DNA of 64,000 bases from Bacilli bacterium (GTDB taxonomy: Bacteria; Bacillota_I; Bacilli_A; RFN20; CAG-826), in NCBI GenBank assembly GCA_050952725.1, contig JBMNLN010000001.1, forward strand, positions 415,638 through 479,637, given 5' to 3'. Both the position numbers and the translations under genes were made by a program. Shown here piece by piece: positions 11,167 through 39,073 of the stretch; position 1 is the first letter of the stretch; each line of letters starts with the position of its first letter. The notes below the pieces were generated by a model. The model saw nothing but the letters and a program-made list of their open reading frames with translations, did not search any database and had not been told where the DNA came from.

Positions 11167-11167
11167 G

Positions 11168-12562
11168 ATGAAAAAACTGTATTTTGTCGTTGGGAGCCAA
11201 CCATTATATGGCCAAGAAGTGTTAGAGCAAGTTGATCGCAATGCACAAGAAATGGCGAAATTCTTAAATAAGAAAATCAAAGGTGTAGAAGTAGTCGCCC
11301 TTCCGGTGGTGGAGTCCGCTACTAAAATTGAGGATACTCTCGTAAAAGCATCAGTGGATAAAGATTGCGTTGGAGTTATCACCTGGATGCACACCTTTTC
11401 GCCAGCGAAGATGTGGATTAAAGGTTTGCAAAAACTCCATAAACCTCTCCTGCATCTACATACGCAATACAATGAAAAACTTCCATATGACACAATCGAC
11501 ATGGATTTTATGAATTTAAACCAAGCAGCGCACGGAGATCGTGAATTTGGTTTTATTTGCACGCGGCTAGGTCTTAAACGAGCGATTGTCTCGGGATATT
11601 ATCGAAACGAAAACGTCATTAAGCGCATTCAAAGATTTGCCGATGTCGCTAAAGCGATTGCTTATTCCCGCAATCTGCGCGTGGCCTCATTTGGTAATAA
11701 TATGCGTGATGTGGCTGTCACCGATGGCGATCGCGTTGAAAGCGAAATTAAATATGGCTGGAATGTCAATTACTATGCGGTAGGTGACCTTGTTGAAATC
11801 ATAAAAACTATTTCTCCCGAAGAAATTCAAACGAAGATGAATGAATACCAAGAAAAATATGTTCTCAATACCACTCGCCTCGATGCGGTAAAAGAACAAG
11901 CAAAGTATGATATCGCCCTTCATAAATTCTTAGCGCAAGAAAGAATCTGCGCTTTTACGGATACTTTTCAAGATTTACATGGCTTAAGACAATTACCAGG
12001 TTTATCAGTACAAAATATTATGGCGGAAGGCATCGGCTTTGCCCCCGAAGGCGATTATAAAACTGCCGCTTTGATGGCCGTACTTTGCAAGATGAGCGAA
12101 GGAAGAGAAGGGGCGACGGGCTTCTTGGAGGATTACACCTATGATTTAACTGAAGGTGAAGAACTAGAATTAGCTTCGCATATGTTAGAGGTCTCCCCCG
12201 TCTTTGCGCAAAACCAACCCAAAATTGAAGTCCATCCCTTGGGCATCGGCGGTAAAGAAGATCCAGCCCGATTAGTTTTCGATGGCATTGAAGGCAAAGG
12301 AATCGCGGTTTCAATAGTCGATATGGGCACGCATTTTCGACTCATTTGTGCAGATATCGAATTAGTTAAACAGCCGAAACCGATGCCTAATTTACCCGTT
12401 GCCCGCGTGATGTGGAAAATCCTTCCTGATTTTGCTACGGGCACAGAAAAATGGATTGAAGCCGGTGGAGCCCATCATTTCGTCGTTTCCACCGCCATTA
12501 CGCGAGCGGATATTGAATTATTTGCCAAACTAACCGACACGGAATTAATTGTCATCGGCTAA
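11168..12562 (+). CDS. araA: L-arabinose isomerase
   Basis: MKKLYFVVGSQPLYGQEVLEQV is the canonical AraA start. Track ORF trimmed by 26 codons to the Met just after the araD stop. About 465 aa. Confidence 0.9.
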   Translation: MKKLYFVVGSQPLYGQEVLEQVDRNAQEMAKFLNKKIKGVEVVALPVVESATKIEDTLVKASVDKDCVGVITWMHTFSPAKMWIKGLQKLHKPLLHLHTQYNEKLPYDTIDMDFMNLNQAAHGDREFGFICTRLGLKRAIVSGYYRNENVIKRIQRFADVAKAIAYSRNLRVASFGNNMRDVAVTDGDRVESEIKYGWNVNYYAVGDLVEIIKTISPEEIQTKMNEYQEKYVLNTTRLDAVKEQAKYDIALHKFLAQERICAFTDTFQDLHGLRQLPGLSVQNIMAEGIGFAPEGDYKTAALMAVLCKMSEGREGATGFLEDYTYDLTEGEELELASHMLEVSPVFAQNQPKIEVHPLGIGGKEDPARLVFDGIEGKGIAVSIVDMGTHFRLICADIELVKQPKPMPNLPVARVMWKILPDFATGTEKWIEAGGAHHFVVSTAITRADIELFAKLTDTELIVIG

Positions 12563-12626: not shown

Positions 12627-13493
12627 TTATTTACTCCGATATTTCTTGCGATATTGATGGGGAGTGATATTTTCAACACTTTTAAACAAATTAATCAGAT
12701 GAGCAGTGGATTTAATTGAGCAGAGATCACCGATATAATCAAGGGAATAATCAGTTTCTTCAAGATAACGCTTAATTACCTCCACCATTTTTAATTTACG
12801 GTCATCACGTGGGGTGATTTTAAAGAATTCTTTATATTTGATGCCAAAATACGTTTCGGTAAAACCGATTGCTGCTGCCATTTTTCTCACGGTGTATTCA
12901 ATCGGGTTCGCATACATCAAACTCCGCACATTAACGAAAGAGGCTCTTAGACTTGAAGAAGAAAGAGAGCGGTTCAAGTTTAAACAACAAATACTCAAAG
13001 TTTTAAAAATTTTATCAATATATTCAGGAATTTTAGGAACAAGTGATTCCGCGTACGGAGTATTGACGATATAAGAGAGGCGATCCATATCAAAAACAAT
13101 CTTTTCGGCATCCTCTTTAGAAAGAGCAATAATGGTGTCAAAAGGAATCTTATAAGGAGTAAAAAAGGATTCTTTTTCGTCGATATACATGAAACTATTT
13201 AAAACTGGTGTCCCTCCACTTCGATATGCTTGTAAAGTCCCAGGTTTATAAAGAATAGCGCTATTTGAGGGAATTTTAAAATAACTTTCCCCATCATAGG
13301 AAAAGAGCATATCAGTCTGAAAAATTACCAATAAAAAAGCGGTCCCTGGAATGATTACTTTTTGATTATAATCACTAGGTTCAATTTTATTTGTGAGGAC
13401 GATTATTTTATGTTCGCTATCCACAATTGTAATTTTAATAGAAAAAAAACAATTTTCAAGATATAGAAAAACAATAATTTCACATTGAAACAC
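12627..13493 (-). CDS. AraC/XylS-family transcriptional regulator
   Basis: C-terminal AraC-type HTH (MYANPIEYTVRKMAAAIGFTETYFGIKYKEFFKITPRDDRKLKM). The start is uncertain because the track start abuts the divergent promoter. Confidence 0.7.
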   Translation of the reverse strand: MFQCEIIVFLYLENCFFSIKITIVDSEHKIIVLTNKIEPSDYNQKVIIPGTAFLLVIFQTDMLFSYDGESYFKIPSNSAILYKPGTLQAYRSGGTPVLNSFMYIDEKESFFTPYKIPFDTIIALSKEDAEKIVFDMDRLSYIVNTPYAESLVPKIPEYIDKIFKTLSICCLNLNRSLSSSSLRASFVNVRSLMYANPIEYTVRKMAAAIGFTETYFGIKYKEFFKITPRDDRKLKMVEVIKRYLEETDYSLDYIGDLCSIKSTAHLINLFKSVENITPHQYRKKYRSK

Positions 13494-13497
13494 TGCA

Positions 13498-13526
13498 TTG
13501 AAAACGCTTTATTAACTTAATAAAAT
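13498..13526 (+). promoter_or_regulatory. Sigma-A type promoter for the 13538 lipoprotein operon
   Basis: TTGAAA, 17-nt spacer, TAAAAT, ending 11 nt before the ATG at 13538. Confidence 0.5.
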
Positions 13527-13537
13527 ATAGTTAAGAA

Positions 13538-16500
13538 ATGAAAAAGCGAAAATTATATCCTTTGTTTTTGGCGTTGTTAACCACTGTTTCTGGTTGCAAT
13601 AACGAGCGAAAAAGGACCGAAACGGCACCTTTTCTTGAGGCTATTAGTTACCATGCTGAAATGGTGAACCGCTATATTTTGGTTAATGAGCCTCTTGATT
13701 TCTCCCCATCTTATTTTTTGATGACTTATTCTGATGCAAGTACGGAAACGATTCCGTTTAACGAGTCGATAATCACAACCTACGATTCTTCTGTTTATGG
13801 CATTGATGAAGCTGAAGTTTGTTTGAATTTTGATGATTTAAACTATACCTTTGCTTTTGAGTATTTCGTGTTCGATAATGACAGCAATCGCACATTAATC
13901 AAAGCGATTGATGCTTTACCTTATCTCAACAAACTCACTACAGATGATGTTGAGACGATTATTGATCTCCTCAATACTTATATGCAATTAAGCGAAGGTG
14001 AAAAGGATTTTTTAATCAATCATTTTTCGATAAAAATCGAGCGACTTCGCCGCTCCGAAAAAGCACTTATCGATGCCTATTTTACGGAAAAGGAAAAAGA
14101 ATTATTCGATTTTTCCAATACGCTCAATGTTGGCGCTTATAGTGAGGAAGCTTTGGAGACAATCAGAAATTATTGTCTGGAATTCGCCGCAGGCGTCTAT
14201 ACTTCTCTTCAGGAAGTTGTCGATAAGTATGAAGAGGCTTTGCAAAAGATTAATGGCGTTGCCAAGAGAGAACTTTCTCTTGAAGAATATCGGGCGGAAA
14301 CAATTGCAGCCCTGAAGAATTGTTTTGTTATCTCCCTTAACTCCGTTGTAGAAGAAGCGGGAGTTTATTCATTTATTGAAACACCAAAAGATTACACCTT
14401 AGAAGCCCCAATTTCTAATATTGTGGTTTCCTTTGCAGACCAAGTAGCGATGATGGATGTTCCTGCGGAAATCGATGAGCTTTATACGGAAACTTATCGT
14501 GAAATCGAAGCAGTGCTCCTGCCGTTATTTATACCCGATGCAGTTACAAGTATTAATAATGTTTTCCTCAATACCAAAAACATTGAGGCGGACTTACTAA
14601 ATTCCTGGAACAGTATTACGATTTCTGTTTCTGGTCTCTATGACAACATCTTGGTTGATTACTTGGATGATAATCGGTGGTGGATTCCGGAAGCTTATCG
14701 CCCAAGTATCATTTTGGAAAAATCTGAAGATGAACTAAGGCTTAAAACATCGATAAGAACAGTGGTAGCTTCGTATAATGATTTGGTTTTTGAAATTTTG
14801 CGTGCGACATTAGAAAAGAACTTGGAGATGTTTTACGCGATTCATCGCAATCATAATCCCGCTTATGATACGACCGATGTTTTTTACTGGCATGTCATCT
14901 CTGATTATTTTGGTGATACCCCTCAACAGCAATTTATTTATGATGGTCCCTTAAGCGAATATAGAGGGGTCGCATATGGCAATTCGCGAAACAACACCTT
15001 CCGGCTTGTCGGCGCTTTTTACAATGATGCCTACCGCATGCGCACTTCGCCAGCCTTATTAGCAAAATATTTCGAATTAAGAACTAACATCGCCCCCGAT
15101 CCTCTTGCGGTTAAGGATATCAAAACCGATTTATCGCAGATGAAAACCGAGTACAACATCGGTGAAAATCTCGATTTGACAAACGGAAAGATTATCGTCA
15201 CTTATAACGATACCTCAACTTCTATCATCGAAATGAGTAATGAAATGATTCAGGGGGAGGTCGATATGGAAACTAGTGGTAACAAAACGATAACCCTGGA
15301 ATTCAAAGATGAAAAACTCAATGAAGACCAGACGGTTTCCTTCTCGATCGTGGTTTTATCAGATTCAGATGCCTTTAATGAGATTATTACCAAAATTACC
15401 GCTTTAAGAGAAATCGATCAAGCTAACGAAGAAGATATTGCCGATATTTTAGCGATTTTAACATTAATTAATCATCTCTCCAGTGATAATCAACAAAAAT
15501 TTGCTGAAGAATACCCCACTGAATATCAAAAATTGAAAAACTCTGAAAAAAAAGCCGCTAAATTATACGGTGAATTATCGATTAAGGAACCAATCCACGG
15601 ATACGAAACACTGAACTATTATGTCTATGATGCGACAAGCCGAGGTAATCTTGACACCTTATATCAACAAATGATTAATACCTCGATTACCAGTATAACC
15701 TTTGCGGCTATCGATAATGCAGTTCAAGCCTTTGATGATGAATATCAGGCCTTGACAATTGATGCCACTCTTAATTTGGAGCAATTCTTGAATGCGAGTC
15801 TAAATTCACTCAATCGCTTATGTGAATACCAAATTAATCAGTATGGCGGGACGATGGCGGCGGTCACCTTTGGCAATGTGACCAAAACCGTTAAAGATGA
15901 AACCAATGTTAAACCCTTATATGACGACTTGGTCAACGCCGTCAGCGCCGTCAGCAGCATTGAAGCAGCGACAGCAATTATTGCGGAAAATATCGAAGCG
16001 CTCTATAGCGAAATTATTACCGCCTATTCTGCAAACGCGAATGCAAACTTAAAACAAACGATGTATGATTTGCGCGCGACCATTTCGCCGTTATGGAACC
16101 AAGATGGCAATAGCGACATTATCGAAATGAACGGAGAAGGAAACGGCAAGATGACCACTGATTATCTTGATGATGATGGCTATTATTGTTGGTACGTCCC
16201 CAATGCGTTTCAAACTGGCAATCTCTACTCCAAGATTTCTGTAGGGATTTGCGCGAGTAAATATGAGATTTACAAGAAGTATGAATTTGCTTTAGTGGAT
16301 ATGTCGCGGGTGACGATGTATCGCAATATTATCCATGCTTGGTTATATGGGCATATGAGTGTCAATTGGTGGCAAATCATCTACTATTCCCCAGGATTTA
16401 CTTATGATGGATGTTTGCCAGAATATGAAGGCAATACCTATGCCGACAGTAGTTTCAGATTGTGGGGATGGGGTTGGCGACCTGGAAGTAAAGTGACAAC

Positions 16501-16552
16501 TGTCGCTGATTTAGTTGAAAAATACAATTACGATATCGCTCTTTATCTATAG
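13538..16552 (+). CDS. Giant surface lipoprotein (1004 aa), unknown function, first gene of a glycan-utilisation locus
   Basis: Lipobox LLTTVSGC. No recognisable catalytic motif. Confidence 0.6.
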   Translation: MKKRKLYPLFLALLTTVSGCNNERKRTETAPFLEAISYHAEMVNRYILVNEPLDFSPSYFLMTYSDASTETIPFNESIITTYDSSVYGIDEAEVCLNFDDLNYTFAFEYFVFDNDSNRTLIKAIDALPYLNKLTTDDVETIIDLLNTYMQLSEGEKDFLINHFSIKIERLRRSEKALIDAYFTEKEKELFDFSNTLNVGAYSEEALETIRNYCLEFAAGVYTSLQEVVDKYEEALQKINGVAKRELSLEEYRAETIAALKNCFVISLNSVVEEAGVYSFIETPKDYTLEAPISNIVVSFADQVAMMDVPAEIDELYTETYREIEAVLLPLFIPDAVTSINNVFLNTKNIEADLLNSWNSITISVSGLYDNILVDYLDDNRWWIPEAYRPSIILEKSEDELRLKTSIRTVVASYNDLVFEILRATLEKNLEMFYAIHRNHNPAYDTTDVFYWHVISDYFGDTPQQQFIYDGPLSEYRGVAYGNSRNNTFRLVGAFYNDAYRMRTSPALLAKYFELRTNIAPDPLAVKDIKTDLSQMKTEYNIGENLDLTNGKIIVTYNDTSTSIIEMSNEMIQGEVDMETSGNKTITLEFKDEKLNEDQTVSFSIVVLSDSDAFNEIITKITALREIDQANEEDIADILAILTLINHLSSDNQQKFAEEYPTEYQKLKNSEKKAAKLYGELSIKEPIHGYETLNYYVYDATSRGNLDTLYQQMINTSITSITFAAIDNAVQAFDDEYQALTIDATLNLEQFLNASLNSLNRLCEYQINQYGGTMAAVTFGNVTKTVKDETNVKPLYDDLVNAVSAVSSIEAATAIIAENIEALYSEIITAYSANANANLKQTMYDLRATISPLWNQDGNSDIIEMNGEGNGKMTTDYLDDDGYYCWYVPNAFQTGNLYSKISVGICASKYEIYKKYEFALVDMSRVTMYRNIIHAWLYGHMSVNWWQIIYYSPGFTYDGCLPEYEGNTYADSSFRLWGWGWRPGSKVTTVADLVEKYNYDIALYL

Positions 16553-16560
16553 GAGGTTGT

Positions 16561-18528
16561 ATGACGAGATTACCCAATAAAATTTATCACGGTGCCGCTT
16601 ATTATCCCGAAGTGTGGGATATCGAAACGATTCGCAAAGACATCGTCCAGATGAAAAAACTAGGAATTAATGTCGTGCGGATTGCTGAATTCGCTTGGTG
16701 TTTATTAGAGCCTGAAGAAGATGTTTTTAATATTGGCTTATTCGACGAAGCCATTGAAGAGTTCGCTAAAAACGGCATTGAAACTATTATGTGCACGCCC
16801 ACCGCCACTCCGCCTCGATGGTTCACGAAAAAATATCCAGAATCGCTAATTCTTGACCGCTGGATGAATCGGGCCCATCACGGTTCGCGCGAACACGTCT
16901 GTTTTAGTGATCCTGATTACTTAAGAAGAAGCAGGATTATCGTTAATAAACTAGGTGAACATTACGGAAAAAATCCCCATGTTATCGCTTGGCAATTACA
17001 TAATGAATATAACTGTCCTCCAGTGAGCGAGTGCGTCTGTGATAACTGCGAAAAAGCTTATCGCGAATGGTTGAAAAAGAAATATGGGACGATTGAAAAA
17101 TTGAATGAGGAATGGAACAGCACCATTTGGTCAACAAGATATAATTCCTTTGATTGCGTAATTGCCCCACGTCCAACCCCAAACGGTCACAGCGCCTCAA
17201 TGTCGACCAATTATACTCTGTTTACTTTTGACAATGTTTCTCGATATAACAAGATGCAAGTTGACATCCTAAAAAAATATGTCAAAGTTCCGATTACACA
17301 TAATACTAATCGCGTTTTCCACATCGACCAAGAGGATATTTTTAAAGAATTGGATTTTGTCTCTTTTGATAGTTATGTGACGCAAGATCGATATCCAGAA
17401 ATTTGTTTTGAAGTGGAAATGAGTCGTTGCTTAATTCCTGGTGTGCCTTTTTGGGAAATGGAAACTAGTTGCGGAACGAGTGCCAATCTCCATGGAAGAA
17501 GCCCACTTCATAAACCTGGTTTTGTCAAAGCGACAGCGGTCAATCAATTTTTGGCGGGTTCCCAAGGTTTTTCCTACTGGCTTTTCCGGCAACATCGCGG
17601 TGGAACCGAAATGCCTCATGCCCACGTTGTCACTTCTTTCGGAACCTTAAGTGCAACAGCGGTAAATGTTCTCGATGTGAAAAATGAAATTGAAAAACTA
17701 ACCCCCTTCTTAACTACAACGCAAACCAAACAGGCAGAAGTGGCCCTCCTTTATACCGATAAAGGAAGAGCGTTTGTCACCAATGAAACCTTAGGAGGAA
17801 ATAATTATCTCAACGACATGGTGAGTGTTTATGACTCATTATTAAAAACCTCGATTTATCGCGATATTATTTATCCTCATAACTCATTCAAGGGATACCA
17901 AGTCATCATCATTCCTTATGTTGCTCACTTGACCGATGAATTGGTCCAAAAAATTGTGGATGCCGCTAAAGAAGGAGCGACGGTAATTGTTGGTCCGTAT
18001 TCAGGTTATCGGACCAATAGCCATGCTTATTACACGAAAAATGCTTTCGGCCCGATTGAAAAGTATTTTAAAGAAGCAATCATTGATTGGGATCATACCC
18101 TTGGACAAGATGCGACCTATGAAGCTTTTGGTCTCTCGGTTCCTTTAGAAAATTATGCATGCGTGATTGAAAAAGGCGTTGGTGAAATTAAGGGGGGATA
18201 TTTTACTGGCAAATCGCTTATTAGTGAAAACGCCATTGGACTCGGGAAAATCGTTTTCGTCGGCACGCGGTTTCATCAAGAATTGCAAGATAAGCTAGTC
18301 GAGCATTACCTAACTGAAAAAATCAATAAGAAAGTCATGGCCGAAAAATCAATTATCGTCTATGAACGCCAAGATGAAAAAGATGAATATCTTTGTTTAA
18401 TCAACATGGGTTTTGAAGAAGCGAAGTTTGAGATTATCAAAGGGGTTTTTGAAGATTGTTTCAATCAAAACATCATTAAAAAAGGCTCTTTGGCACCTTG
18501 TGATTATTTGATTTTAAGAAAGAGATAA
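16561..18528 (+). CDS. Glycoside hydrolase family 42 beta-galactosidase
   Basis: GH42 N-terminus (YHGAAYYPEVWDIETIRKDIVQMKKLGINVVRIAEFAW), about 655 aa, no signal peptide (cytoplasmic), RBS AGGAGG. Confidence 0.85.
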   Translation: MTRLPNKIYHGAAYYPEVWDIETIRKDIVQMKKLGINVVRIAEFAWCLLEPEEDVFNIGLFDEAIEEFAKNGIETIMCTPTATPPRWFTKKYPESLILDRWMNRAHHGSREHVCFSDPDYLRRSRIIVNKLGEHYGKNPHVIAWQLHNEYNCPPVSECVCDNCEKAYREWLKKKYGTIEKLNEEWNSTIWSTRYNSFDCVIAPRPTPNGHSASMSTNYTLFTFDNVSRYNKMQVDILKKYVKVPITHNTNRVFHIDQEDIFKELDFVSFDSYVTQDRYPEICFEVEMSRCLIPGVPFWEMETSCGTSANLHGRSPLHKPGFVKATAVNQFLAGSQGFSYWLFRQHRGGTEMPHAHVVTSFGTLSATAVNVLDVKNEIEKLTPFLTTTQTKQAEVALLYTDKGRAFVTNETLGGNNYLNDMVSVYDSLLKTSIYRDIIYPHNSFKGYQVIIIPYVAHLTDELVQKIVDAAKEGATVIVGPYSGYRTNSHAYYTKNAFGPIEKYFKEAIIDWDHTLGQDATYEAFGLSVPLENYACVIEKGVGEIKGGYFTGKSLISENAIGLGKIVFVGTRFHQELQDKLVEHYLTEKINKKVMAEKSIIVYERQDEKDEYLCLINMGFEEAKFEIIKGVFEDCFNQNIIKKGSLAPCDYLILRKR

Positions 18529-18538
18529 AGAAGAAGAA

Positions 18539-19495
18539 ATGACAGCGACCACTCTGAAACGACATAAGCTTAATAAGAATTCGTTTGCTTATAAAATCAA
18601 AAAAGACTTTAAGAATAACCGCGGGTTGTATGCTTTGATTATCCCTGGATTTTTACTTTTAATTCTCTTTTCGTTCGTGCCGCTTTATGGTATTACGATG
18701 GCGTTTCAAAGATATGACTCCTCGTTAGGCGTCTTTGGTTCCCCTTTTATTGGTTTTGAAAACTTTCGCAGGTTTTTTAGCAGTCCTTATTTCTCAGAAA
18801 TTTTTAGAAACACTCTGCTTATCAGTCTTTTTTCCTTAGTGGTTGGTTTCGTTTTCCCTTTAATCTTCGCCCTGAGTTTGAATAGTGTAGAAAACTTACG
18901 CTTTAAAAAGTTTGTCCAGATGATTAGTTATGCCCCCTACTTTATTTCGGTGGTAGTTATCGTGGCGATGATTAATATTTTCTTTGATGGCGATAATAGT
19001 GTCTTTGCTAATTTTGTCCGGCTCTTTGGTGGGGAAGTGAAAAATAATCCTATAACCGATCCAAAGTCTTTCTACTCGCTTTATGTCTGGTCGGGGCTGT
19101 GGCAAATCTTGGGCTGGAATTCAATTATCTATGTCAGTGCGCTTTCCAGTGTATCCCCCGAACTATATGAGGCGGCAACTTTAGAAGGAGCCACTAAACT
19201 ACAGAAAATTTGGTATATCGAACTCCCGACGATTCTCCCGACAATTGTCACTTTATTAATCTTATCGGCAGGAAGTATCTTAGGGGTCGGATTTGAAAAG
19301 GTCTATTTAATGCAAAACGCAGATAATTTGGAAACTAGTGAAGTGATCTCGACTTATGTTTATAAAAAAGGCATTTTATCTTCGGATTACGGTCTTGGCA
19401 CCGCGGTTGGATTATTTAACTCGGTGATTAGTTTTTTGATGTTGATGATTGTTAATTTCTTCGCGAAAAAATTCACCAAGTATAGCGTGATTTAG
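18539..19495 (+). CDS. Carbohydrate ABC transporter permease (LplB/YtcP-like)
   Basis: 318 aa with multiple TM segments and the typical LplB N-terminus. Confidence 0.8.
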   Translation: MTATTLKRHKLNKNSFAYKIKKDFKNNRGLYALIIPGFLLLILFSFVPLYGITMAFQRYDSSLGVFGSPFIGFENFRRFFSSPYFSEIFRNTLLISLFSLVVGFVFPLIFALSLNSVENLRFKKFVQMISYAPYFISVVVIVAMINIFFDGDNSVFANFVRLFGGEVKNNPITDPKSFYSLYVWSGLWQILGWNSIIYVSALSSVSPELYEAATLEGATKLQKIWYIELPTILPTIVTLLILSAGSILGVGFEKVYLMQNADNLETSEVISTYVYKKGILSSDYGLGTAVGLFNSVISFLMLMIVNFFAKKFTKYSVI

Positions 19496-19497
19496 GA

Positions 19498-20442
19498 GTG
19501 GTTATGAATAACAGAGTAAAAATTAGCCCTTCTAATCCAGTGAAACGCAAGGGCAAAATTCAAAAATGTAAGCAGGATAAAATATTTAATGTGGTCAACA
19601 TTAGTATTCTTGTACTCTGCACGATAATCTTTCTTTATCCATTGATTTTTGTGGTTTCAGCCTCTTTTACCAAACCAAGTGATGTTCTAGCAGGGAGAAT
19701 GTTCCTTTTCCCAACTTCCTTATACTTCGAAGGTTACGAAGAAATTTTTAAATATGAAGGTTTGTGGAAAGGATTCATAAACTCGGTGATTATTGTCGTG
19801 TTTGGTAGCGCCCTCAATATGGCGGTGACTTTCACAGTAGGTTACGCATTAAGCAGAAGAGATTTCTATGGCAGAAAATTCTTTTTATTCTTCTTTATTT
19901 TCGCAATGTTTTTCTCGGGGGGATTGATACCTTTCTACTTGTTGGTAGCAAACACTTTAAGAATGAATGATTCCTTACTCGCTTTGATTATTCCAAGTGC
20001 AGTTAGCGTTTGGAACATTATTTTAGCGAAGACCTATTTCTCAAGTTCCTTATCCGAAGAATTATTAGAGGCGGCAAAAATTGATGGCTGTAGTAATCTT
20101 CGTTTCTTCTTTAGGATTGCACTCCCGCTTGCAAAACCGATTATTGCTGTCATTCTTCTCTATAACGTAGTTGGAAGATGGAATTCTTATTTTGATGCGC
20201 TAATTTTCTTACAAAATCCTGACAAATATCCCTTACAACTCGTAATTCGTAATTTGATTAGCCAAAACGATATTAGCACCATTGATCCTGGTGCTGGACA
20301 AATTACAATCGATAATATGTATCGGGTCGAAGGGATGAAATATGGAGTGATTATTCTCTCGACGATTCCGATGCTGGTTATATATCCATTTGTACAAAAG
20401 TACTTTATCAAAGGTATTATGGTGGGCTCACTTAAGGGCTAA
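19498..20442 (+). CDS. Carbohydrate ABC transporter permease (LplC/YteP-like)
   Basis: 314 aa. EAA-like loop (LLEAAKIDGCSNLRFFFRIALPLAKP). Confidence 0.8.
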   Translation: MVMNNRVKISPSNPVKRKGKIQKCKQDKIFNVVNISILVLCTIIFLYPLIFVVSASFTKPSDVLAGRMFLFPTSLYFEGYEEIFKYEGLWKGFINSVIIVVFGSALNMAVTFTVGYALSRRDFYGRKFFLFFFIFAMFFSGGLIPFYLLVANTLRMNDSLLALIIPSAVSVWNIILAKTYFSSSLSEELLEAAKIDGCSNLRFFFRIALPLAKPIIAVILLYNVVGRWNSYFDALIFLQNPDKYPLQLVIRNLISQNDISTIDPGAGQITIDNMYRVEGMKYGVIILSTIPMLVIYPFVQKYFIKGIMVGSLKG

Positions 20443-20448
20443 AGGAGA

Positions 20449-22053
20449 TTGATTATGAAACAGATGAAAATTTTAATTCCGAGTGCGGTTTTACTGGCGA
20501 CTTTATGTGCGTGTACTGGTCAGACCTCACAAAAATTACATTCGCATCCCGAAGTTTTAACTGAACCGGGCACTTTTCCGATCATCAAGGAAGAATATCG
20601 CGGCGAAGTCTCTTTAAAAATTATGGGAGCAAGCAACGCGGCGATTAATCCTGATTGGTCGAAGAACAAGTTCTTTATTAGGTTTAGCGAAGAAACTGGA
20701 GTTGATTTCACCTTCAATGTCTATGGCGATGGGATGTACAATGACAAGAAAGCTTTTGCTTTAGCGACCAATAATAATTTACCCGACATCTTTTTTAAAG
20801 CAGCGCTCAATAACTATGACGAAGTAACTTATGGGGGAAAAACCCTTCGCCCTTTAAATGATTTAATCGATGAATATGCCCCGAATATCAAACAATTATT
20901 AGAAGATAATCCGATTGTCAAAAAATCAATTACGACCACGGATGGAAATATTTATGCCCTTCCTACCATCTATACCAATCTTCCGAATAATACGACATCA
21001 AATATGCGCGGTTTCTTTTGGATTAATAAAGATTGGATGGGAACCACCCCGATGCCTAAAACACCCGCAGAATATAAAGCAATTTTACAAACCTTTCGAC
21101 AAGAACGATTAAAAATCCGCGACTCCTATCCTTTAGTGGTCGCGGGAATTGACGATTTGCTCAAAATTTTCAATTTCTTTGGACTCGATCTAGTCAACTA
21201 CTGGGTTCAAGGTGATGAAGATGGTCAATTAGTTTTTGGCCCGAAAACCGACAATTTCAAACAAGGATTAGCTTTTATCAAATCGTTAATTGATGACAAT
21301 TTGATGAACGCTAACTGGTCGACCATGGAAGCAGCCGAAATCAATGCCCGCGGAGCAAGCGGTGATTATTACGGCAGTTTCGTCCAAGCTGGTCCCCAAT
21401 TTGCAGTAGGGTTTAACAAGATGCGGCAATATACGACCCTTGATCCGCTTTCGGTCACTGGTGAAGGCGGTTTCTGGGGAGCAAAAAACCCATTGCAAAG
21501 AGGATGTTTTGCTTTGACTTATGAATGCAAATATCCGGAAGCGGCTATCCGTATGATGGATGCTTTATATGATATTGATGCCCCTTATGGCCTTTGGTCA
21601 TCAATCGGTAAAGAAAACGAAGAATGGCAATGGCTTGACGAAGAGCATACAGCTTGGAAATCGACAATTAGTGATAATCAATATTCAGAAGTGATGTCGA
21701 CCACCATTATCCAAACTGGTGATGGAATGCCTTATGCGATTGATGAGTCTTTTTGGGAAAAACAAGCAACAGAAACTGATACTTATACCCGACCGTTAAG
21801 AAATCGCCAGATGACATTTGGTAAAGTGGGCTACCCCGATGTTTATTTTGATTCAGTTCAATTGACGGAAATGGCAGATTTATCGACTGACATCAATACA
21901 CATATTACCCGTTATATTGCTGGTGTTTTAAACGGCTCAAAAAATCTCGAGGGTGATTGGGAGACCTTTATCAAATTTTCTCGTCTTAATCTCGATCGCT
22001 ATTTAGAAATTCTGCAAGAGCGTTACGATGATTTTAATCAAGCGATTCAATGA
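20449..22053 (+). CDS. Extracellular solute-binding lipoprotein (LplA-type, family 1 SBP)
   Basis: 534 aa, signal peptide ending in a Cys-containing lipobox region (LLATLCAC), size and composition typical of LplA-like SBPs. Confidence 0.7.
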   Translation: MIMKQMKILIPSAVLLATLCACTGQTSQKLHSHPEVLTEPGTFPIIKEEYRGEVSLKIMGASNAAINPDWSKNKFFIRFSEETGVDFTFNVYGDGMYNDKKAFALATNNNLPDIFFKAALNNYDEVTYGGKTLRPLNDLIDEYAPNIKQLLEDNPIVKKSITTTDGNIYALPTIYTNLPNNTTSNMRGFFWINKDWMGTTPMPKTPAEYKAILQTFRQERLKIRDSYPLVVAGIDDLLKIFNFFGLDLVNYWVQGDEDGQLVFGPKTDNFKQGLAFIKSLIDDNLMNANWSTMEAAEINARGASGDYYGSFVQAGPQFAVGFNKMRQYTTLDPLSVTGEGGFWGAKNPLQRGCFALTYECKYPEAAIRMMDALYDIDAPYGLWSSIGKENEEWQWLDEEHTAWKSTISDNQYSEVMSTTIIQTGDGMPYAIDESFWEKQATETDTYTRPLRNRQMTFGKVGYPDVYFDSVQLTEMADLSTDINTHITRYIAGVLNGSKNLEGDWETFIKFSRLNLDRYLEILQERYDDFNQAIQ

Positions 22054-24896
22054 GGCAAATTATGAAAAGGAAATTGCGATTATTTCTATTATTACCAATG
22101 ACAATTCTCGCTAGCTGCAATCAAAAAAAAGTTGGTTCAGAAAATTTTGCCTTGTCGTATAAAAAGGGTAGTAATGGTTATTTCATTGTTTTGAGTCGAC
22201 ATAACCAAACTTATACAACTGAGGGGGGATCGCTTGGAGTGCGTTTTGATAAAAATGAATTCCGAGCTGATGATCCGATTTTTAAGGACTATACCACGGT
22301 TGAAGAAGTGAATGGAGTTCTCTTAGCAAAAGGACAAGTAGCTTCTAATTATGGAACGACTATCGATTTTATTGATTCTTTCAAGGTGGTTTCAAATCGG
22401 CTCTTAGTCAATCGCGAATTCTCGGTTACTAATGCGGGTGAAGATTTTGGCTTCATGGTGGAACAAAAATGGTTAGATACCAAAGAAGGCAAAATTCATG
22501 ACCGTGAAGGGTTTATTCCTGCTTCCTATTATGTCAATGGCAATCGCTCCTTCAATGATTGTTCTACGCGGATGTTTTTCGGTGGGGATTTGCTGGTGAT
22601 TCCTAGTGATGCCGTCTCCGTTTTAATGGCGAGTTCCTTTAAGGATGGTGTGGCTTTTGCGATGCTTGATACTTCGAGTGGCTATCGCGAGACCTCGATC
22701 GTTGATCGTTATACAGTTGATTCAGCTTATTTACACATTGATGAGAATTTTAATTTTTCTGGCATTGCTCTTAGTAATGAAGAGAATAATCGCATCGCTT
22801 ATAATTACCTTTACCCTGCTTATAAAAATGCGAACGAAGATAGTTTTAATTATCGGCTCCTTCCAGTCGAAAAAGGCTTAAAACGCAAAGTGTCGTATTC
22901 GCTCTTTATCGATAAATTTAATTCCTACAACGAGATGTATACTTCAATGTGGCGAAGTGCCTACGATGTATATCGCTACCTTGATAAGCGTTATCAGATG
23001 CCTGAGGTTTATGAAACCCTTTTAAAATATGTTCGCGATTCTTATTCAGATAACAACATTTGGGGGCCGATTCCCTTATATTTCACCAATGCTGATCATT
23101 ATCATCCAGATAGCGGTTTCCTTTTCCGTAATCTGGAAATGGGAATGTTCATGATTAAATATGGGCGAAAAACTAATGATCAAACCACGATTGATAATGC
23201 TTTAAAGGTCATAAATTATCAATTAGACAATGATAGTATTGATGCGCGGTTACAACTCTATACGCGCGATAGCAGCGTCTTTAAGCGCACGATGTTTGAC
23301 GGCTTAACTAGCACAGTTAATTTATATGCTTATTTAAAAACGACATCTTTTGGTGATGAAGTGATGAAAACCTTGATGGAGAAACTCTTTAATTACATCA
23401 CCGTGAAAGCGGAATTGTATAAAAATGAAACTAGTTTAATGGCGCTATCTTTTTATTCTCGCCTCTACCAGTTAAAGGACTTATTGTTTCTCGATTACGA
23501 TCAGGTCGCATTGAGATTGGCGGAGGCCGCGATTGCCCAAACCAAAGAATACTCAGGCTACTTTGGTGCAATCGAAAATAAGGATACGCGAATTTCCGTC
23601 GCTGAAGATTATATGCTTTTACTACGAGGGTTGATGACAATTTATGAAACCAATCATAACACCCGTTATTTACGCGAAGCGATTCGCTTAGCGAATTATT
23701 TAGAAACATTTAATGTTTTGACCCCCATGAATATGAATCCAGTTGGCGCCACTGGGGCCGAAGGATATAACTTTGGTTTTATTGGCAATGAGCGATTTCT
23801 TGGTAATGGTTATGCTTTTAACAATACTAACCATGGAATTCTTGATTGCCCCACCTCAAGTACTGTGGTGGAGTATATGAAACTTTATAAATATACTGGT
23901 GATCAGCATTATTTAGATTTTGCGGAATTCAAATTTATCAACTCTCTCCTTTATGTCAACATGGGAGATAAAGTTGGTCATATGGATGATCCCCTTCACT
24001 CTTCGGGCAATGGATTTATCAATGAGTTTTGCGGGAATGCGACCACGATTGAAGGATATCGCGATGGCGGTATGCGCGGAGCGGTTCATGATTCGATTAT
24101 CCCGTGGAATGTATACGAATTACTCGTGGGATTTGAATATTTAAAAGAGAATAATTATCCAGGATTTGCTGAAGATTATTCCTTAAGTCATAATCTTGCC
24201 CGGAACAAAGTTGTTACAATTGCGAATGACAATCTCGCTCATTCAGTCGCTGAAGCCTTTGATAATTTAGAGGATTCTTTCTACTTCGCAAATGAAGCTA
24301 GTGAATTTATCCTTGATTTGAATGAACAATGTCATATTGATTCGATTGAAATCGAGGCGGAAAAGAATTTAAATGTCTATCAATCGAGTAACAACATCGA
24401 TTTTGAAGAAATAACTAATTTAACCAACCTCGAATTAAAAACTCGATATATCAAATTTGTCACTGAAGCCAATAACAAAATCAATAATATTCAAGTTAAC
24501 GGCTACCCAGTTCACTATCAAGATTTAGCGGTGGATAGTTTGGTTTTAAATAATGCTGGTTCGATGAGAAATGCGATTGATAAATCCAATTATCAAACAA
24601 TTTGGAATGCGGGAAGTAGTCAAGAAACGCACATTCTAACTCTAGATTTACTAAGTGAATGCGAAATCTATCAAACTGCACTTATGTTTTCGGAAATTTC
24701 TTCAACCGCTTTTAAAATTGAAACCTCGCTCAATGGTGAAAATTATGTTGAATACGCGCTCGAAGCAGGCGACCAAGATAAATATATCTTCGTCAATCGC
24801 GGCTACCAAAAGGCCCGTTATGTGCGATTAACCATCTTGTCCTCTTCGTTAGAAAACATTTTGGTAAGAGACTTTAAGGTATTAGGGAGCCGATAA
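22050..24896 (+). CDS. Large surface lipoprotein (948 aa), unknown function, possibly glycan-active
   Basis: Lipobox (TILASC) after a short N-terminal extension, ATGA overlap with the SBP gene. No motif I can name with confidence. Confidence 0.55.
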   Translation: MRQIMKRKLRLFLLLPMTILASCNQKKVGSENFALSYKKGSNGYFIVLSRHNQTYTTEGGSLGVRFDKNEFRADDPIFKDYTTVEEVNGVLLAKGQVASNYGTTIDFIDSFKVVSNRLLVNREFSVTNAGEDFGFMVEQKWLDTKEGKIHDREGFIPASYYVNGNRSFNDCSTRMFFGGDLLVIPSDAVSVLMASSFKDGVAFAMLDTSSGYRETSIVDRYTVDSAYLHIDENFNFSGIALSNEENNRIAYNYLYPAYKNANEDSFNYRLLPVEKGLKRKVSYSLFIDKFNSYNEMYTSMWRSAYDVYRYLDKRYQMPEVYETLLKYVRDSYSDNNIWGPIPLYFTNADHYHPDSGFLFRNLEMGMFMIKYGRKTNDQTTIDNALKVINYQLDNDSIDARLQLYTRDSSVFKRTMFDGLTSTVNLYAYLKTTSFGDEVMKTLMEKLFNYITVKAELYKNETSLMALSFYSRLYQLKDLLFLDYDQVALRLAEAAIAQTKEYSGYFGAIENKDTRISVAEDYMLLLRGLMTIYETNHNTRYLREAIRLANYLETFNVLTPMNMNPVGATGAEGYNFGFIGNERFLGNGYAFNNTNHGILDCPTSSTVVEYMKLYKYTGDQHYLDFAEFKFINSLLYVNMGDKVGHMDDPLHSSGNGFINEFCGNATTIEGYRDGGMRGAVHDSIIPWNVYELLVGFEYLKENNYPGFAEDYSLSHNLARNKVVTIANDNLAHSVAEAFDNLEDSFYFANEASEFILDLNEQCHIDSIEIEAEKNLNVYQSSNNIDFEEITNLTNLELKTRYIKFVTEANNKINNIQVNGYPVHYQDLAVDSLVLNNAGSMRNAIDKSNYQTIWNAGSSQETHILTLDLLSECEIYQTALMFSEISSTAFKIETSLNGENYVEYALEAGDQDKYIFVNRGYQKARYVRLTILSSSLENILVRDFKVLGSR

Positions 24897-24897
24897 T

Positions 24898-25758
24898 ATG
24901 ACGATTAAAGATATTTATATGCGCGATCCATTTGTTTTTGTGGAGAACGGAACCGCCTACTTAATCGGTACAAGTGATGAAAATATTTGGAGTGGAAAAG
25001 CCGATAGTTTTCTCGGCTATAAATCAACGGATTTAGTAAATTTTGAAGGACCTTATGTTTTATTTAAAAACACCGATGATTTTTGGGCGGATGAAAATTT
25101 TTGGGCGCCTGAACTGCACAAAATCGATGGGAAATATTATATATTTGCTTCTTTTAAAAACGTTGATCGCCCTCGCGCTTCCCAAGCTTTAGTTGCCTCA
25201 ACTCCTTTTGGAAAATATACTCCACTTGCAAAACCTTTTACTCCGAAAGACTGGGAATGTTTAGATGCGACTTACTTCGAAGAAAATGGTCGAAAATATA
25301 GCATTTTTTGCCGAGAATGGCTCCAAGTTCACGATGGTGAAATTTGTGTTGGAGAATTAAATGATGATTTAACCGAACTTAAAAACATTAAAAAACTCTT
25401 TAAAGCAAGTGACGCCCAATGGGCCCAATATTTCTATAACGGAGATGATAAAAACAAAAAGTATGTCACTGATGGTCCATTTATTTATCAATGTGAAAAT
25501 GGGCGATTATTGATGCTTTGGTCATCAAATGGAAAAGAAGGATATGCCCTTGGAGTCGCTTATAGCGATAACGGAATTTTAGGAGAATGGAAACAATTAG
25601 AGGAACCACTCTTCAAAGATGATGGTGGTCATGGAATGATTTTTTCTTTTCAGGGAAAGAAATATCTCATTCTCCATACCTCGAATAAAACGCCGCTCTC
25701 TGAACGTCCCTACCTTATTGAAGTTATCGAAGAAAATAACATGATTAAAATTAAATAG
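24898..25758 (+). CDS. Glycoside hydrolase family 43 enzyme (arabinofuranosidase/xylosidase-type), cytoplasmic
   Basis: 286 aa. GH43 five-bladed propeller signatures (RDPFVF ... FWAPELHKIDGKYYIF ... DGPF). No signal peptide. Confidence 0.75.
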   Translation: MTIKDIYMRDPFVFVENGTAYLIGTSDENIWSGKADSFLGYKSTDLVNFEGPYVLFKNTDDFWADENFWAPELHKIDGKYYIFASFKNVDRPRASQALVASTPFGKYTPLAKPFTPKDWECLDATYFEENGRKYSIFCREWLQVHDGEICVGELNDDLTELKNIKKLFKASDAQWAQYFYNGDDKNKKYVTDGPFIYQCENGRLLMLWSSNGKEGYALGVAYSDNGILGEWKQLEEPLFKDDGGHGMIFSFQGKKYLILHTSNKTPLSERPYLIEVIEENNMIKIK

Positions 25759-33986: not shown

Positions 33987-34313
33987 ATGTTGGCTCTATT
34001 TGAAAAGTATTCGCAAACCAGCGAAGAAAGAAAACACAAAATTCATCCTCTCTTAATCAATAAGAGTGCTTATTTAGTCTTTGATAAAATTGCCAAATAT
34101 CTCGCAGAAGAAGGGTATGCAAATCTTACCCTCAACAAGAACTTTTTAGAAATCTACTGCACGGATTACGGTTTTGAAATCACAGTTATCGTTTCCAGTG
34201 AAGATGAGGCTACTGCTTTAGTCAATGCCTCGGTTTATGGGGAAAAGAAACGCGGTAGAACCAGAAGCAGGCTCAAGAAATTCATCTTAGAGATTGATCG
34301 GTTATTCGTTTAA
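33987..34313 (+). CDS. Hypothetical 108-aa protein co-transcribed with the ATPase
   Basis: The ORF starts 3 nt after the ATPase stop and a terminator follows. No motif. Confidence 0.45.
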   Translation: MLALFEKYSQTSEERKHKIHPLLINKSAYLVFDKIAKYLAEEGYANLTLNKNFLEIYCTDYGFEITVIVSSEDEATALVNASVYGEKKRGRTRSRLKKFILEIDRLFV

Positions 34314-34316
34314 GAA

Positions 34317-37241: not shown

Positions 37242-37245
37242 GGAG

Positions 37246-39037: not shown

Positions 39038-39073
39038 GACATCTAATCAAAAAATAAAAACATCACCGCGAAG

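Follow-up and report, generated by a model that had tools for sequence, protein, structure and literature searches.

A putative Gram-positive polysaccharide utilization locus with two giant lipoproteins of rare, uncharacterised families in uncultured gut bacteria

Introduction

Gram-positive polysaccharide utilization loci (gpPULs) are defined by the presence of a degrading enzyme, a transporter and a regulator in one locus (Sheridan et al. 2016, PMC5320581). A related arrangement is described for the HypBA system of B. longum, in which the anchored GH121 enzyme HypBA2 frees a disaccharide that is taken up by an ABC importer and processed by an intracellular GH127 enzyme (PMC7263609). The clan GH-P families GH127 and GH146 operate with a Zn2+ site of the Cys3-Glu type and a Cys nucleophile (PMC10850190), and the PL27 L-rhamnose-α-1,4-D-glucuronate lyase BACCELL_00875 (PDB 5no8), which acts on arabinogalactan proteins (AGPs), combines an N-terminal β-sandwich with an (α/α)6 domain (PMC8377490).

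We analyzed a 64,000-nt stretch of the genome of an uncultured Bacilli bacterium (contig JBMNLN010000001.1, positions 415,638 to 479,637), referred to below as the window. The guts of humans and animals commonly harbour uncultured Bacilli and Christensenellales with small genomes, about whose glycan niches, to our knowledge, almost nothing is known. We identified a single operon in the window (13538-34313), which is probably under AraC control and which we consider a probable gpPUL; its glycan substrate would contain galactose and arabinose and most likely comes from plants. Its transport component consists of two permeases, a FusA/AlgQ-like solute-binding protein (SBP) and a MalK/UgpC-type ATPase, and its regulator is an AraC-family helix-turn-helix protein. 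The enzymatic component includes cytoplasmic GH42 and GH43 proteins, whose substrates are probably oligosaccharides, two SASA esterases, and a giant lipoprotein, LP948, which falls into no classified family and is the sole candidate extracellular depolymerase.

Results

Organization of the locus and its regulator

An earlier sequence-only reading had described eleven ORFs in this region as a PUL-like locus, and all eleven were confirmed in the ORF listing of the window. The AraC-family regulator gene (12627-13493, minus strand, 288 aa as listed) is followed on the plus strand by genes for the giant lipoprotein LP1004 (13538-16552, 1004 aa), a cytoplasmic GH42 β-galactosidase-type enzyme (16561-18528, 655 aa), two ABC permeases of the CUT1 sugar-importer type (18539-19495, 318 aa; 19498-20442, 314 aa), a large lipoprotein SBP (20449-22053, 534 aa), LP948 (22050-24896, 948 aa), a cytoplasmic single-domain GH43 protein (24898-25758, 286 aa), the lipoprotein esterase SASA1 (25770-29081, 1103 aa) and its tandem paralog SASA2 (29176-32481, 1101 aa), and a MalK/UgpC/MsmK-type ABC ATPase (32497-33984, 495 aa). 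An additional 108-aa ORF (33987-34313, plus strand), found in the ORF listing and its translation, gave no match in a Pfam search and is apparently the final gene of the operon. Intergenic spacing is -4 to 15 nt throughout, with a single exception of 94 nt. A terminator scan revealed a strong hairpin with a 15-bp stem and a T-run (34313-34350), which serves both the operon and a convergent gene for a secreted 381-aa protein (34370-35515, minus strand), recognized from its translation and a profile of the module X described below. The araB, araD and araA genes are located directly upstream of the locus (8906-12562), as the sequence-only reading had noted.

Lipoboxes were identified in LP1004 (VSGC, Cys20), LP948 (LASC, Cys23), the SBP (LCAC) and the two SASA proteins (ISSC and LSSC), and both giant proteins are lipoproteins as had been proposed; in LP948 the NCBI gene call starts at M5 and gives a product of 944 aa. 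Bacteroidetes PULs are marked by neighbouring genes for SusC, a TonB-dependent transporter, and SusD. Pfam matches to SusC, SusD or TonB-related families are absent from all ORFs of the locus, and import is assigned to the ABC system. The classical endo-galactanase and endo-arabinanase families GH53, GH16, GH43_24 and GH30 are likewise absent from the locus by Pfam.

The regulator matches the Pfam HTH_18 and HTH_AraC domains. Its ORF as listed is over-extended: the start supported by homologs is GTG 13424, giving a product of ~265 aa whose N-terminus aligns with that of a 262-aa homolog in the related locus L001. This start leaves an AT-rich divergent intergenic region of 113 bp (13425-13537) with promoter-like hexamers on both strands. 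The sites detected by the scan, on the plus strand at 13498-13526 (TTGAAA-17-TAAAAT) and on the minus strand at 13459-13432, are consensus matches only, and we do not rely on the former since just 12 nt separate its end from the ATG of LP1004.

Recurrence of the cassette in other genomes

The core gene order, LP1004-like, GH42, (AraC), permease, permease, SBP, LP948-like and, usually, GH43, was found again in ~14 distinct contigs of other metagenome-assembled genomes (MAGs; loci L001-L016 and L020), which argues against a chance arrangement. These belong to Bacilli, Ca. Scatosoma, Clostridia and Christensenella MAGs from human, sheep, goat and mouse gut or rumen, and all cassette relatives are uncultured MAGs from animal guts. 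The cassette is limited to a handful of uncultured lineages, and it is a compact conserved unit that is probably shared horizontally. The LP1004 gene is almost always the first in the cassette, adjoining GH42. The AraC gene belongs to the cassette in loci L001, L004, L006, L013 and L020, and the ATPase gene closes the cassette in L001 as it does here.

Most of the related cassettes lack both araBDA and SASA esterases, which are therefore weak guides to the substrate. Nearly all homologs of LP1004 and LP948, including those from Clostridia, bear lipoboxes or N-terminal anchors. The Mollicute-type character ascribed to the genome in the sequence-only reading is neither supported nor rejected by these data, as the genetic code is standard (TGA serves as the stop codon in 9 of 44 ORFs) and lipoprotein anchoring is shared with the Clostridia relatives.

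Importer, cytoplasmic glycosidases and esterases

The family assignments of the regulator, GH42, permeases, SBP, GH43, SASA esterases and ATPase proposed from sequence alone were all borne out by Pfam, NCBIfam and PDB matches. Together with the surface lipoproteins they make up a PUL-like Firmicute locus, as had been suggested, in which an AraC regulator and an LplABC/CUT1-type importer accompany cytoplasmic GH42 and GH43 enzymes. Both permeases contain the BPD_transp_1 domain, and in NCBIfam they come closest to the UgpA/MalF and UgpE/MalG models. The SBP is weakly matched in Pfam; its PDB relatives, FusA (5g5y, E 4e-26) and AlgQ1/2 (E 1e-13 to 1e-11), are all oligosaccharide-binding SBPs of ~500 aa. 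The ATPase matches the NCBIfam UgpC (UgpC/MalK) model with 449 bits in two stretches, and an insertion of ~130 aa separates its Walker A motif (aa 37) from LSGGQ (aa 266).

Neither GH42 nor GH43 has a signal peptide. The GH42 protein consists of a catalytic TIM-barrel domain (PF02449, 367 bits) and a trimerisation domain (PF08532, GH42M, 92 bits), and contains the motifs HNEY (aa 146-149) and WEME (aa 298-301), which we take to be those of the acid/base and nucleophile Glu residues. Its best PDB relatives are β-galactosidases (E 7e-81 to 1e-53), whereas the arabinopyranosidase-type 5xb7 is matched only at 1e-28; this comparison hints at a specificity nearer to that of β-galactosidases. The GH43 protein (PF04616, 113 bits) belongs to a subgroup resembling PDB 5c0p (E 1e-51), on which no literature was found. 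GH43 enzymes are five-bladed propellers that use one Asp as base, a second Asp as pKa modulator and a Glu as acid. Conserved in the cassette protein are RDPF, with the catalytic Asp D10, and CLDAT (D123). The residue aligned with the general-acid Glu in the EGP motif of 4nov is Asp192 (YVTDGPF), and an Asp occupies this position in all cassette homologs and in 5c0p, which makes the activity of the cassette GH43 uncertain.

In SASA1, N-terminal domains, module X and a Flg_new repeat precede the SASA/SGNH esterase domain at the C-terminus, and SASA2 is 74% identical to it over the full length (BLASTP). The SASA domains (PF03629) score 68 bits in SASA1 and 55 bits in SASA2, Flg_new is present in both, and the block I serine motif GQSN is found at aa 757 and 756, respectively. 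Their PDB relatives are the esterases 9ega, 7kmm and 9h4u.

The matches of the SASA domains to proteins named sialate O-acetylesterase raise the question of whether host glycans, such as mucin O-glycans or sialoglycans, are targeted rather than plant glycans. The SASA proteins would then be sialate O-acetylesterases, Gal/GalNAc would be the ligand of the CBM32-like domains of LP948 and β-1,3-galactosides the substrate of GH42; the CBM32 relatives come from mucin-active C. perfringens enzymes, and every relative of the cassette comes from an animal gut. However, genes for sialidase, GH20, GH29, GH95, GH33 or the catabolism of sialic acid are absent from the locus, arabinose is indicated by GH43 and the neighbouring araBDA, the SASA-type relatives include 7kmm, which presumably acts on plant xyloglucan, and the SASA genes lie outside the conserved cassette. 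We regard a host-glycan target as decidedly unlikely. A galactose/arabinose-containing plant glycan is a plausible substrate. The acetylated arabinogalactan proposed earlier draws in part on araBDA and the SASA genes, which most other cassettes lack.

LP948, a candidate surface enzyme

In the AlphaFold2 (AF2) model, LP948 is predicted to comprise an N-terminal β-sandwich (aa 34-290), an (α/α)6 barrel (aa 293-700) and two C-terminal CBM32-like β-sandwiches (aa about 745-820 and 835-947), the discoidin-type β-sandwich exceeding the Pfam threshold for CBM32/F5_F8_type_C. The modelled barrel fits the six-hairpin (α/α)6 glycosidase fold (GH88, GH105, GH76, AGE-like) and is closer to GH88, AGE and GH76 than to GH63 or GH142. 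At the sequence level, no significant match to solved enzymes was found beyond the CBM32 region, and neither Pfam nor PDB sequences of GH88/GH105 are matched. A word-indexed homolog search recovered 12 clusters. Among 12 family members with identity down to 26%, 54 residues are invariant, and those in the barrel include six acidic residues and one His; the conserved loops aa 556-601 and 635-683 are modelled with low confidence.

The GH127 catalytic domain is matched by LP948 below the Pfam gathering score (23.1 versus 24.9 bits; profile positions 90-185 of 376), and weak matches to it occur in 7 of 11 family members (best E 2.2e-5). Membership of LP948 in GH127/GH146 was rejected, since the Cys3-Glu site is absent and the barrel has no conserved Cys: in the family alignment, Cys reaches 50% or more of a column only at the lipobox Cys23, at C761 and at C842, all of which lie outside aa 293-700. 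The best full-length Foldseek match is the PL27 lyase 5no8 (E 2.7e-8, 761 columns, 12% identity), GH146 8qf8 is matched at 1e-4, and the predicted domain order agrees with the PL27 layout of an N-terminal β-sandwich and (α/α)6 barrel (PMC8377490).

These resemblances, together with the overall architecture of GH121 HypBA2, which likewise includes an F5/8C domain, and the GH127 matches, could mean that LP948 is a PL27-type lyase, taking rhamnose caps off glucuronate on AGPs, or a GH127/GH146/GH121-related β-L-arabinofuranoside enzyme acting on AGP or extensin decorations. The 11-member LP948 profile (HMMER) retrieved no 5no8 chain from PDB at E up to 1, and the Cys3-Glu site of GH127/GH146 is missing; we hold this assignment to be unlikely. 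LP948 probably represents a new enzyme of a very rare, uncharacterised family.

The sequence-only reading had assigned both giant lipoproteins to the positions that SusD/E/F-like proteins hold in Bacteroidetes PULs. Were both of them non-catalytic surface glycan binders, cleavage would have to be carried out by enzymes encoded elsewhere or by the community. LP948 does carry CBM32-like domains, neither protein matches a known catalytic family above threshold, and LP1004 shows only Ig domains and helices. Nevertheless, the complete predicted barrel of LP948, with invariant Asp, Glu and His residues of 12 divergent members clustered in its loops, looks like a typical active site; removal of LP948 from the conserved cassette would leave no extracellular enzyme at all; and likeness to SusD, SusE or SusF was searched for in sequence and fold and not found. 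We give this explanation little credence. The predicted barrel/CBM32 fold, the weak GH127 matches and the conserved polar constellation argue that LP948 is an extracellular enzyme, and it is more likely a surface glycan-cleaving enzyme than a SusD/E/F-like binder. The analogy to SusD/E/F holds for gene position only, and the earlier statement that the giant lipoproteins lack recognizable catalytic motifs fails for LP948.

LP1004 and module X

LP1004 consists of two tandem units of ~490 aa (half against half in hhalign: probability 100%, E 5e-63). In each unit, a helical stalk seen in the AF2 secondary structure links a Big_3 Ig domain matched by Pfam (aa 33-112 and 525-607) to a head of ~230 aa, rich in aromatic residues, which we named module X. 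Copy 1 is encoded at 14411-15097 on the plus strand (aa about 292-520; HMM E 3e-81) and is characterized by the motifs DYLDDNRWWIPEAYR, LRATLEKNLEMFYAI, IYDGPLSEYRG and FRL. Copy 2 (15905-16546, plus strand; aa about 790-1003; E 2.5e-70) is a divergent subtype by HMM and alignment. Further copies were identified in SASA1 (nt 26877-27488, E 4e-12) and SASA2 (nt 30277-30894, E 3e-14), and a fifth in the convergently encoded 381-aa protein (nt 34490-35083, E 4e-10), where it is preceded by a Cys/His-rich N-terminal segment and the Pfam search gave no match. Beyond this locus, L013 encodes a SASA-like protein with module X, and both L013 and L014 encode single-unit module X proteins. The cassettes of most related genomes have no module X protein other than LP1004.

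The LP1004 family is very rare. The word-indexed homolog search returned only 4-5 clusters, an exhaustive HMM search was dominated by Big_3 repeat proteins and contained only ~8 true full-length relatives, and a metagenome scan found only 2 contigs, both from an already known family member. In Pfam, all nine family members match Big_3 alone at E up to 1, and module X has no match in NCBIfam. The family profile retrieved from PDB only Big_3 and many influenza HA2 chains (E 0.003-0.06), the latter rejected as spurious coiled-coil or compositional matches. No PDB fold matched the LP1004 model in Foldseek at E up to 0.001. Structure prediction, suggested in the sequence-only reading for both giant products, gave the domain assignment of LP948 described above; the LP1004 model, based on a 4-sequence alignment, reached a pTM of 0.41, with pLDDT <50 in precisely the conserved loops of module X. 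Homologs unrelated to carbohydrates were also looked for with both giant lipoproteins, and none were found. By these profile comparisons, LP1004 is built from an apparently new protein module in a very rare, uncharacterised family.

The presence of module X in both SASA esterases and the 381-aa protein suggests an accessory binding or docking module, and its fusion to esterases is what one would expect of an ancillary targeting module. Two other roles were considered. The first makes LP1004, through module X, the missing endo-enzyme with a wholly new fold, and LP948 an exo-acting or debranching enzyme. The cassette indeed lacks a recognized endo-glycanase, LP1004 is nearly always gene 1 beside GH42, and copy 1 has charged residues (D378, R380, E419, R422, E430, R489) that are invariant in 9 members. 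However, invariance across the alignment of 21 module X copies is limited to P, W, Y, G and R, with no acidic residue among them, esterase fusions and a small secreted protein are more typical of ancillary modules, and LP1004 is mostly made of stalk-like helices and Ig domains; a catalytic LP1004 seems improbable.

The second role is protein-protein docking, with LP1004 as an anchored, cellulosome- or amylosome-like scaffold for the esterases and the 381-aa protein. Such an assembly would account for the two copies of module X in stalk-like LP1004 and for the single copies in three further exported proteins of the locus, one of which has no lipobox and would need a tether. There is, however, no sign of two complementary module types as in cohesin and dockerin, LP1004 has no module X partner in most related cassettes, and the conserved aromatic-rich loops would suit sugar binding equally well; we rate a scaffold as very unlikely. 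The accessory-module interpretation is retained below.

Discussion

Proposed function

The reconstructed pathway would proceed as follows. Five lipid-anchored proteins, identified by their lipoboxes, are presumably exposed on the cell surface. The two SASA/SGNH esterases would, as their family suggests, strip acyl groups off the polymer, while the CBM32-like domains of LP948 would bind the glycan and its (α/α)6 barrel may cleave it, freeing oligosaccharides; for this step the fold and the conserved polar residues are the evidence, and catalysis is inferred from them. LP1004, an elongated repeat of Ig, stalk and module X domains, may be a non-catalytic capture or docking protein, and the 381-aa protein and the esterases may be guided by module X to a shared substrate or complex, both roles being proposed from domain sharing. 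The SBP, the two permeases and the MalK-like ATPase, according to their families, would import the oligosaccharides, which the cytoplasmic GH42 and GH43 would convert to galactose and arabinose or related pentoses, the family of each enzyme being clear and its specificity conjectural. In this genome, the neighbouring araBDA genes could then feed L-arabinose into the pentose-phosphate pathway.

A more far-reaching joint reading, which we offer tentatively, is that module X constitutes a new fold, either a carbohydrate-binding or catalytic family or a homotypic docking module, and LP948 a new glycoside hydrolase or lyase family, acting on a linkage of plant glycans that no Firmicute enzyme is known to cleave. 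In its docking variant, LP1004 would be a lipid-anchored, cellulosome-like scaffold for the esterases and accessory proteins in uncultured small-genome gut Firmicutes. If LP948 is a true enzyme, it would found a new CAZyme family and reveal a dietary glycan harvested by these lineages; module X would add a new family of binding modules or a new mode of surface enzyme assembly.

Comparison with known systems

The locus resembles the gpPULs of Roseburia and Eubacterium rectale in that the genes for an AraC-type regulator, for glycoside hydrolases or esterases and for an ABC importer of oligosaccharides lie together and SusC/SusD are absent, and in that polysaccharide binding is presumed to occur via CBMs on surface enzymes (PMC5320581). 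It differs from them in its extracellular components, which are lipoproteins whose families are unclassified, in lacking a catalogued endo-acting CAZyme, and in its distribution, which covers few uncultured lineages. The SusD/E/F proteins of Bacteroidetes PULs are similarly lipid-anchored surface proteins beside a transporter, and LP1004 may have a comparable capture role, but resemblance in sequence or fold is lacking, as is a SusC-type TonB-dependent transporter, and LP948 looks enzymatic. LP1004 also shares Big_3 domains and helical bundles with the rod-like proteins of Firmicutes that carry Big_3, FIVAR, GA or DUF1542-type helical repeats, such as S. aureus Ebh; its matches to EbhA and DUF1542 are weak and non-significant, and only LP1004 has conserved module X heads.

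Among the enzymes, HypBA2 shares with LP948 an N-terminal β-sandwich, an (α/α)6 barrel, a C-terminal β-sandwich and an F5/8 type C domain, and the HypBA route from a surface enzyme through a dedicated SBP and ABC importer to an intracellular glycoside hydrolase parallels the one proposed here (PMC7263609). In contrast to HypBA2, LP948 has no detectable GH121 sequence similarity and is anchored by a lipid rather than by a C-terminal transmembrane segment, and the intracellular enzymes are GH42 and GH43 instead of GH127. The clan GH-P enzymes GH127 and GH146 likewise combine an (α/α)6 barrel with β-sandwich domains, but these are C-terminal, whereas that of LP948 is N-terminal, and LP948 lacks their Zn(Cys3-Glu) site and Cys nucleophile (PMC10850190). 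PL27 is similar in domain layout, and its activity on AGPs fits the Gal/Ara context of the locus. Since the whole system obeys known gpPUL logic, the conceptual advance is moderate: the locus is a lead for new CAZyme and CBM families within an established kind of system rather than a new kind of system.

Organization of the locus

The sequence-only reading described a polysaccharide utilization locus (PUL)-like region in which an AraC-type regulator is divergent to a gene set of two giant lipoproteins, a GH42, an importer, a GH43, two SASA-esterase lipoproteins and an ATPase. The ORF listing recovered all of these genes in their places, and the domain assignments were borne out by Pfam and NCBIfam: the HTH domain of the minus-strand regulator, GH42 (367 bits in Pfam, with its trimerization domain), BPD_transp_1 in both permeases, a single GH43 domain (113 bits), the two SASA-esterase proteins and a MalK/UgpC-type ATPase. 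The solute-binding protein (SBP, 534 aa) matches Pfam weakly and has clear relatives in the PDB, the large oligosaccharide-binding SBPs FusA (5g5y, E 4e-26) and AlgQ1/2. The araB, araD and araA genes lie directly upstream, as that reading also had it.

The genes between 13538 and 33984 are separated by −4 to 15 nt, except for one gap of 94 nt. A 108-aa ORF without a Pfam match (33987-34313) lies between the stop codon of the ATPase gene and a strong hairpin terminator (34313-34350), and is probably co-transcribed with the operon. By sequence reading, lipoboxes are present in the 1004-aa lipoprotein LP1004 (13538-16552; VSGC), the 948-aa lipoprotein LP948 (22050-24896; LASC), the SBP (LCAC) and both SASA proteins. 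In GH42 and GH43, the catalytic domain forms the very start of the protein. The SASA lipoproteins, SASA1 (25770-29081) and SASA2 (29176-32481), are tandem paralogs located 94 nt apart and sharing 74% identity over their full length; the pair looks like a recent duplication particular to this genome. In the ATPase (32497-33984), a charged-rich, coiled-coil-like stretch of about 130 aa is inserted after Walker A (aa 37) and before LSGGQ (aa 266), and the 496-aa homolog of this ATPase in one of the loci from other genomes (L001) shows the same split ABC_tran matches.

The AraC ORF (12627-13493) is called as 288 aa also on the public contigs that possess the locus. The source genome uses the standard genetic code. 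The first 23 residues of this ORF overlap an AT-rich promoter-like region, and comparison with a 262-aa homolog suggests that the call is over-extended by about 23 codons, with the start at GTG 13424. Such a start would leave a 113-bp AT-rich divergent control region.

A conserved cassette in uncultured gut Firmicutes

We looked up the contigs encoding homologs of LP1004 or LP948 and scanned the GTDB species genomes. The same gene order, an LP1004-like gene, GH42, (AraC), two permeases, a 530-aa SBP, an LP948-like gene and usually GH43, was found again in about 14 distinct contigs, and the locus is thus a conserved cassette and not a chance juxtaposition. Its hosts include an uncultured Bacilli MAG of the human gut, Ca. 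Scatosoma, a mouse Christensenella MAG, and Clostridia or Clostridiales MAGs of sheep-colon and goat-rumen origin. The transport proteins and GH42 share 53-83% identity between Bacilli and Clostridia cassettes, and one Clostridia-type contig (L004/L005, 13446-21125) encodes a phage-type integrase, DUF3800, Fic and Abi_2 proteins directly downstream of the cassette. Together, these two observations suggest horizontal spread of the cassette. The SASA esterases and araBDA are outside the cassette core, SASA-like genes being present only in L012 and L013. In L013 and L014 (Ca. Scatosoma, Clostridiales), a single-unit protein of 625-638 aa carrying module X, the aromatic-rich segment described below, follows LP948 instead of preceding GH42, and in the LP948 homologs of these two loci the N-terminal anchor is hydrophobic and lacks a lipobox Cys.

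LP948, a candidate extracellular enzyme

The LP948 family is rare: searches of 5.8 billion proteins and of 185,579 species genomes gave 12 clusters and 9 loci, respectively. An AF2 model built from 11 sequences (pTM 0.73) consists of an N-terminal β-sandwich (aa 34-290), an (α/α)6 barrel of 12-13 helices (aa 293-700) and two C-terminal β-sandwiches. The family profile matches CBM32-6 of CpGH89 (E 2.7e-11). Among full-length Foldseek matches, the PL27 rhamnose-glucuronate lyase 5no8 ranks first (E 2.7e-8, TM at most 0.34). The model also matches GH146 at 1e-4, and 7 of 11 family members match the catalytic GH127 model of Pfam below its threshold. These comparisons of the predicted fold are consistent with one another as to class and point to no specific family.

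Over 12 members with identities down to 26%, 54 residues are invariant, among them D312, E519, D599, D640, D647, E659, H680, R360, R413, W301 and W686 in the barrel and its loops. The barrel has no Cys conserved among these 12 members. The defining feature of clan GH-P is a Cys3-Glu zinc site with a Cys nucleophile (PMC10850190), and a GH127 or GH146 enzyme is therefore ruled out. From the modeled fold and the conservation pattern we infer that LP948 probably serves the cassette as its extracellular glycan-cleaving enzyme and is a candidate for a new GH or PL family with its own CBM32-type binding domains.

LP1004 and module X

LP1004 is a tandem duplication, the two halves of which align with an hhalign probability of 100% (E 5e-63). 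Each half comprises a Big_3 Ig domain, a long helical region modeled confidently by AF2, and a conserved Tyr/Trp-rich head of about 230 aa, termed module X, for which the model from a 4-sequence alignment has pLDDT <50. The family is extremely rare, with 4-5 clusters in a word-indexed search, about 8 representatives among 1.84 billion in an exhaustive HMM search, and two contigs in 241 million metagenome records. None of 9 family members has a Pfam match other than Big_3, and PDB searches by sequence and fold returned only Big_3 and non-significant helical-rod matches. The LP1004 family is built from a domain without a detectable relative.

Using an HMM, we found module X upstream of the esterase domain in both SASA lipoproteins (E 4e-12 and 3e-14), in a SASA-like protein of L013, in extra ORFs located 5' of the cassette in L007 and L008, and in the single-unit lipoproteins of L013 and L014. 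It is also present in a secreted 381-aa protein without a Pfam match, encoded convergently just downstream of the operon (34370-35515, minus strand). This protein has a Cys/His-rich N-terminal motif, GCQHHGYHY...FWACCTCHEKF, and the extra module X ORFs of L007 and L008 have a comparable one, HIHKGVFHAEILPTCE...YYECECGKKF. Among 21 copies of the module, only P, W, Y, G and R residues are invariant, within the motifs D-x-R-W-W-x-P, Y-D-G and F-R-L, and no acidic residue is invariant. The module may have a catalytic role; its recurrence as an esterase appendage and the lack of an invariant acidic residue favor an ancillary one, in glycan binding or docking.

Cytoplasmic hydrolases, substrate and genomic context

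β-Galactosidases (E 1e-81 to 1e-53) are far closer relatives of the GH42 than is 5xb7, a GH42 of the arabinopyranosidase type (E 1e-28). The closest relative of the GH43 (24898-25758) is the uncharacterized B. thetaiotaomicron protein 5c0p (E 1e-51). In this GH43, in 5c0p and in all cassette GH43s (compared in L001, L003, L007, L008 and L012-L014), an Asp (YVTD[GA]PF) takes the alignment position that the general-acid Glu (EGP) has in other GH43s. The replacement may mark a GH43 subgroup of unusual catalysis or specificity.

A Gram-positive PUL, as defined previously (PMC5320581), is the best-supported picture of the locus. The esterases and LP948 would act on the polymer at the surface, with LP1004 and module X helping in its capture; the SBP, permeases and ATPase would import the oligosaccharides, and GH42 and GH43 would finish hydrolysis in the cytoplasm. 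A plant glycan containing galactose and arabinose (arabinogalactan, AGP or pectic side chains) is a plausible substrate, a reading drawn from enzyme families; as a specific call it is possible but less likely than not. The locus contains no catalogued endo-galactanase or arabinanase.

A second PUL-like locus, without module X, occupies 43396-63636 on the minus strand. Encoded there are two GDSL esterases and a SASA protein of 986 aa. A GH2 and a GH43 of 650 aa are accompanied by proteins of 426 and 480 aa, with weak matches to GH43/BNR and GH32N, respectively, and by proteins of 590 and 864 aa of unknown type. The locus also has two permeases, an SBP of 622 aa and a GFO/IDH oxidoreductase. Between the two loci lies a small sugar catabolic cluster (35760-40526) of an FGGY kinase, a class II FBP/tagatose-bisphosphate-type aldolase and a mutarotase-like DUF4432 protein, followed by an MrcB_N and NOV_C protein that looks like a restriction or defense protein. 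Upstream, a TldD/PmbA metallopeptidase pair, an ECF-type sigma factor, MscL and DegV (4736-7455, minus strand, and 463-1026) constitute an ordinary housekeeping context.

Comparison with known systems

Sus-type PULs possess a SusC/SusD pair, whereas the present locus has no such pair and is therefore not of this type. The observations of the sequence-only reading are borne out, and its interpretation is supported in part: the PUL-like character stands, and LP948 is more likely an enzyme than a SusD/E/F-like binder. The closest known system by its logic is HypBA of B. longum, in which an anchored enzyme (β-sandwich, (α/α)6 and F5/8C domains) releases a disaccharide for an ABC importer, the disaccharide being then cleaved by an intracellular GH (PMC7263609). 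As a system, the locus is best read as a Gram-positive PUL, a known kind, and introduces no new principle. Its distinctive feature is a conserved extracellular machinery made of two very rare, unclassified lipoprotein families, of which the LP948 family is, judging by its predicted fold, likely a new six-hairpin CAZyme. The locus is a well-defined lead to new families of CAZymes and binding modules in uncultured gut Firmicutes.
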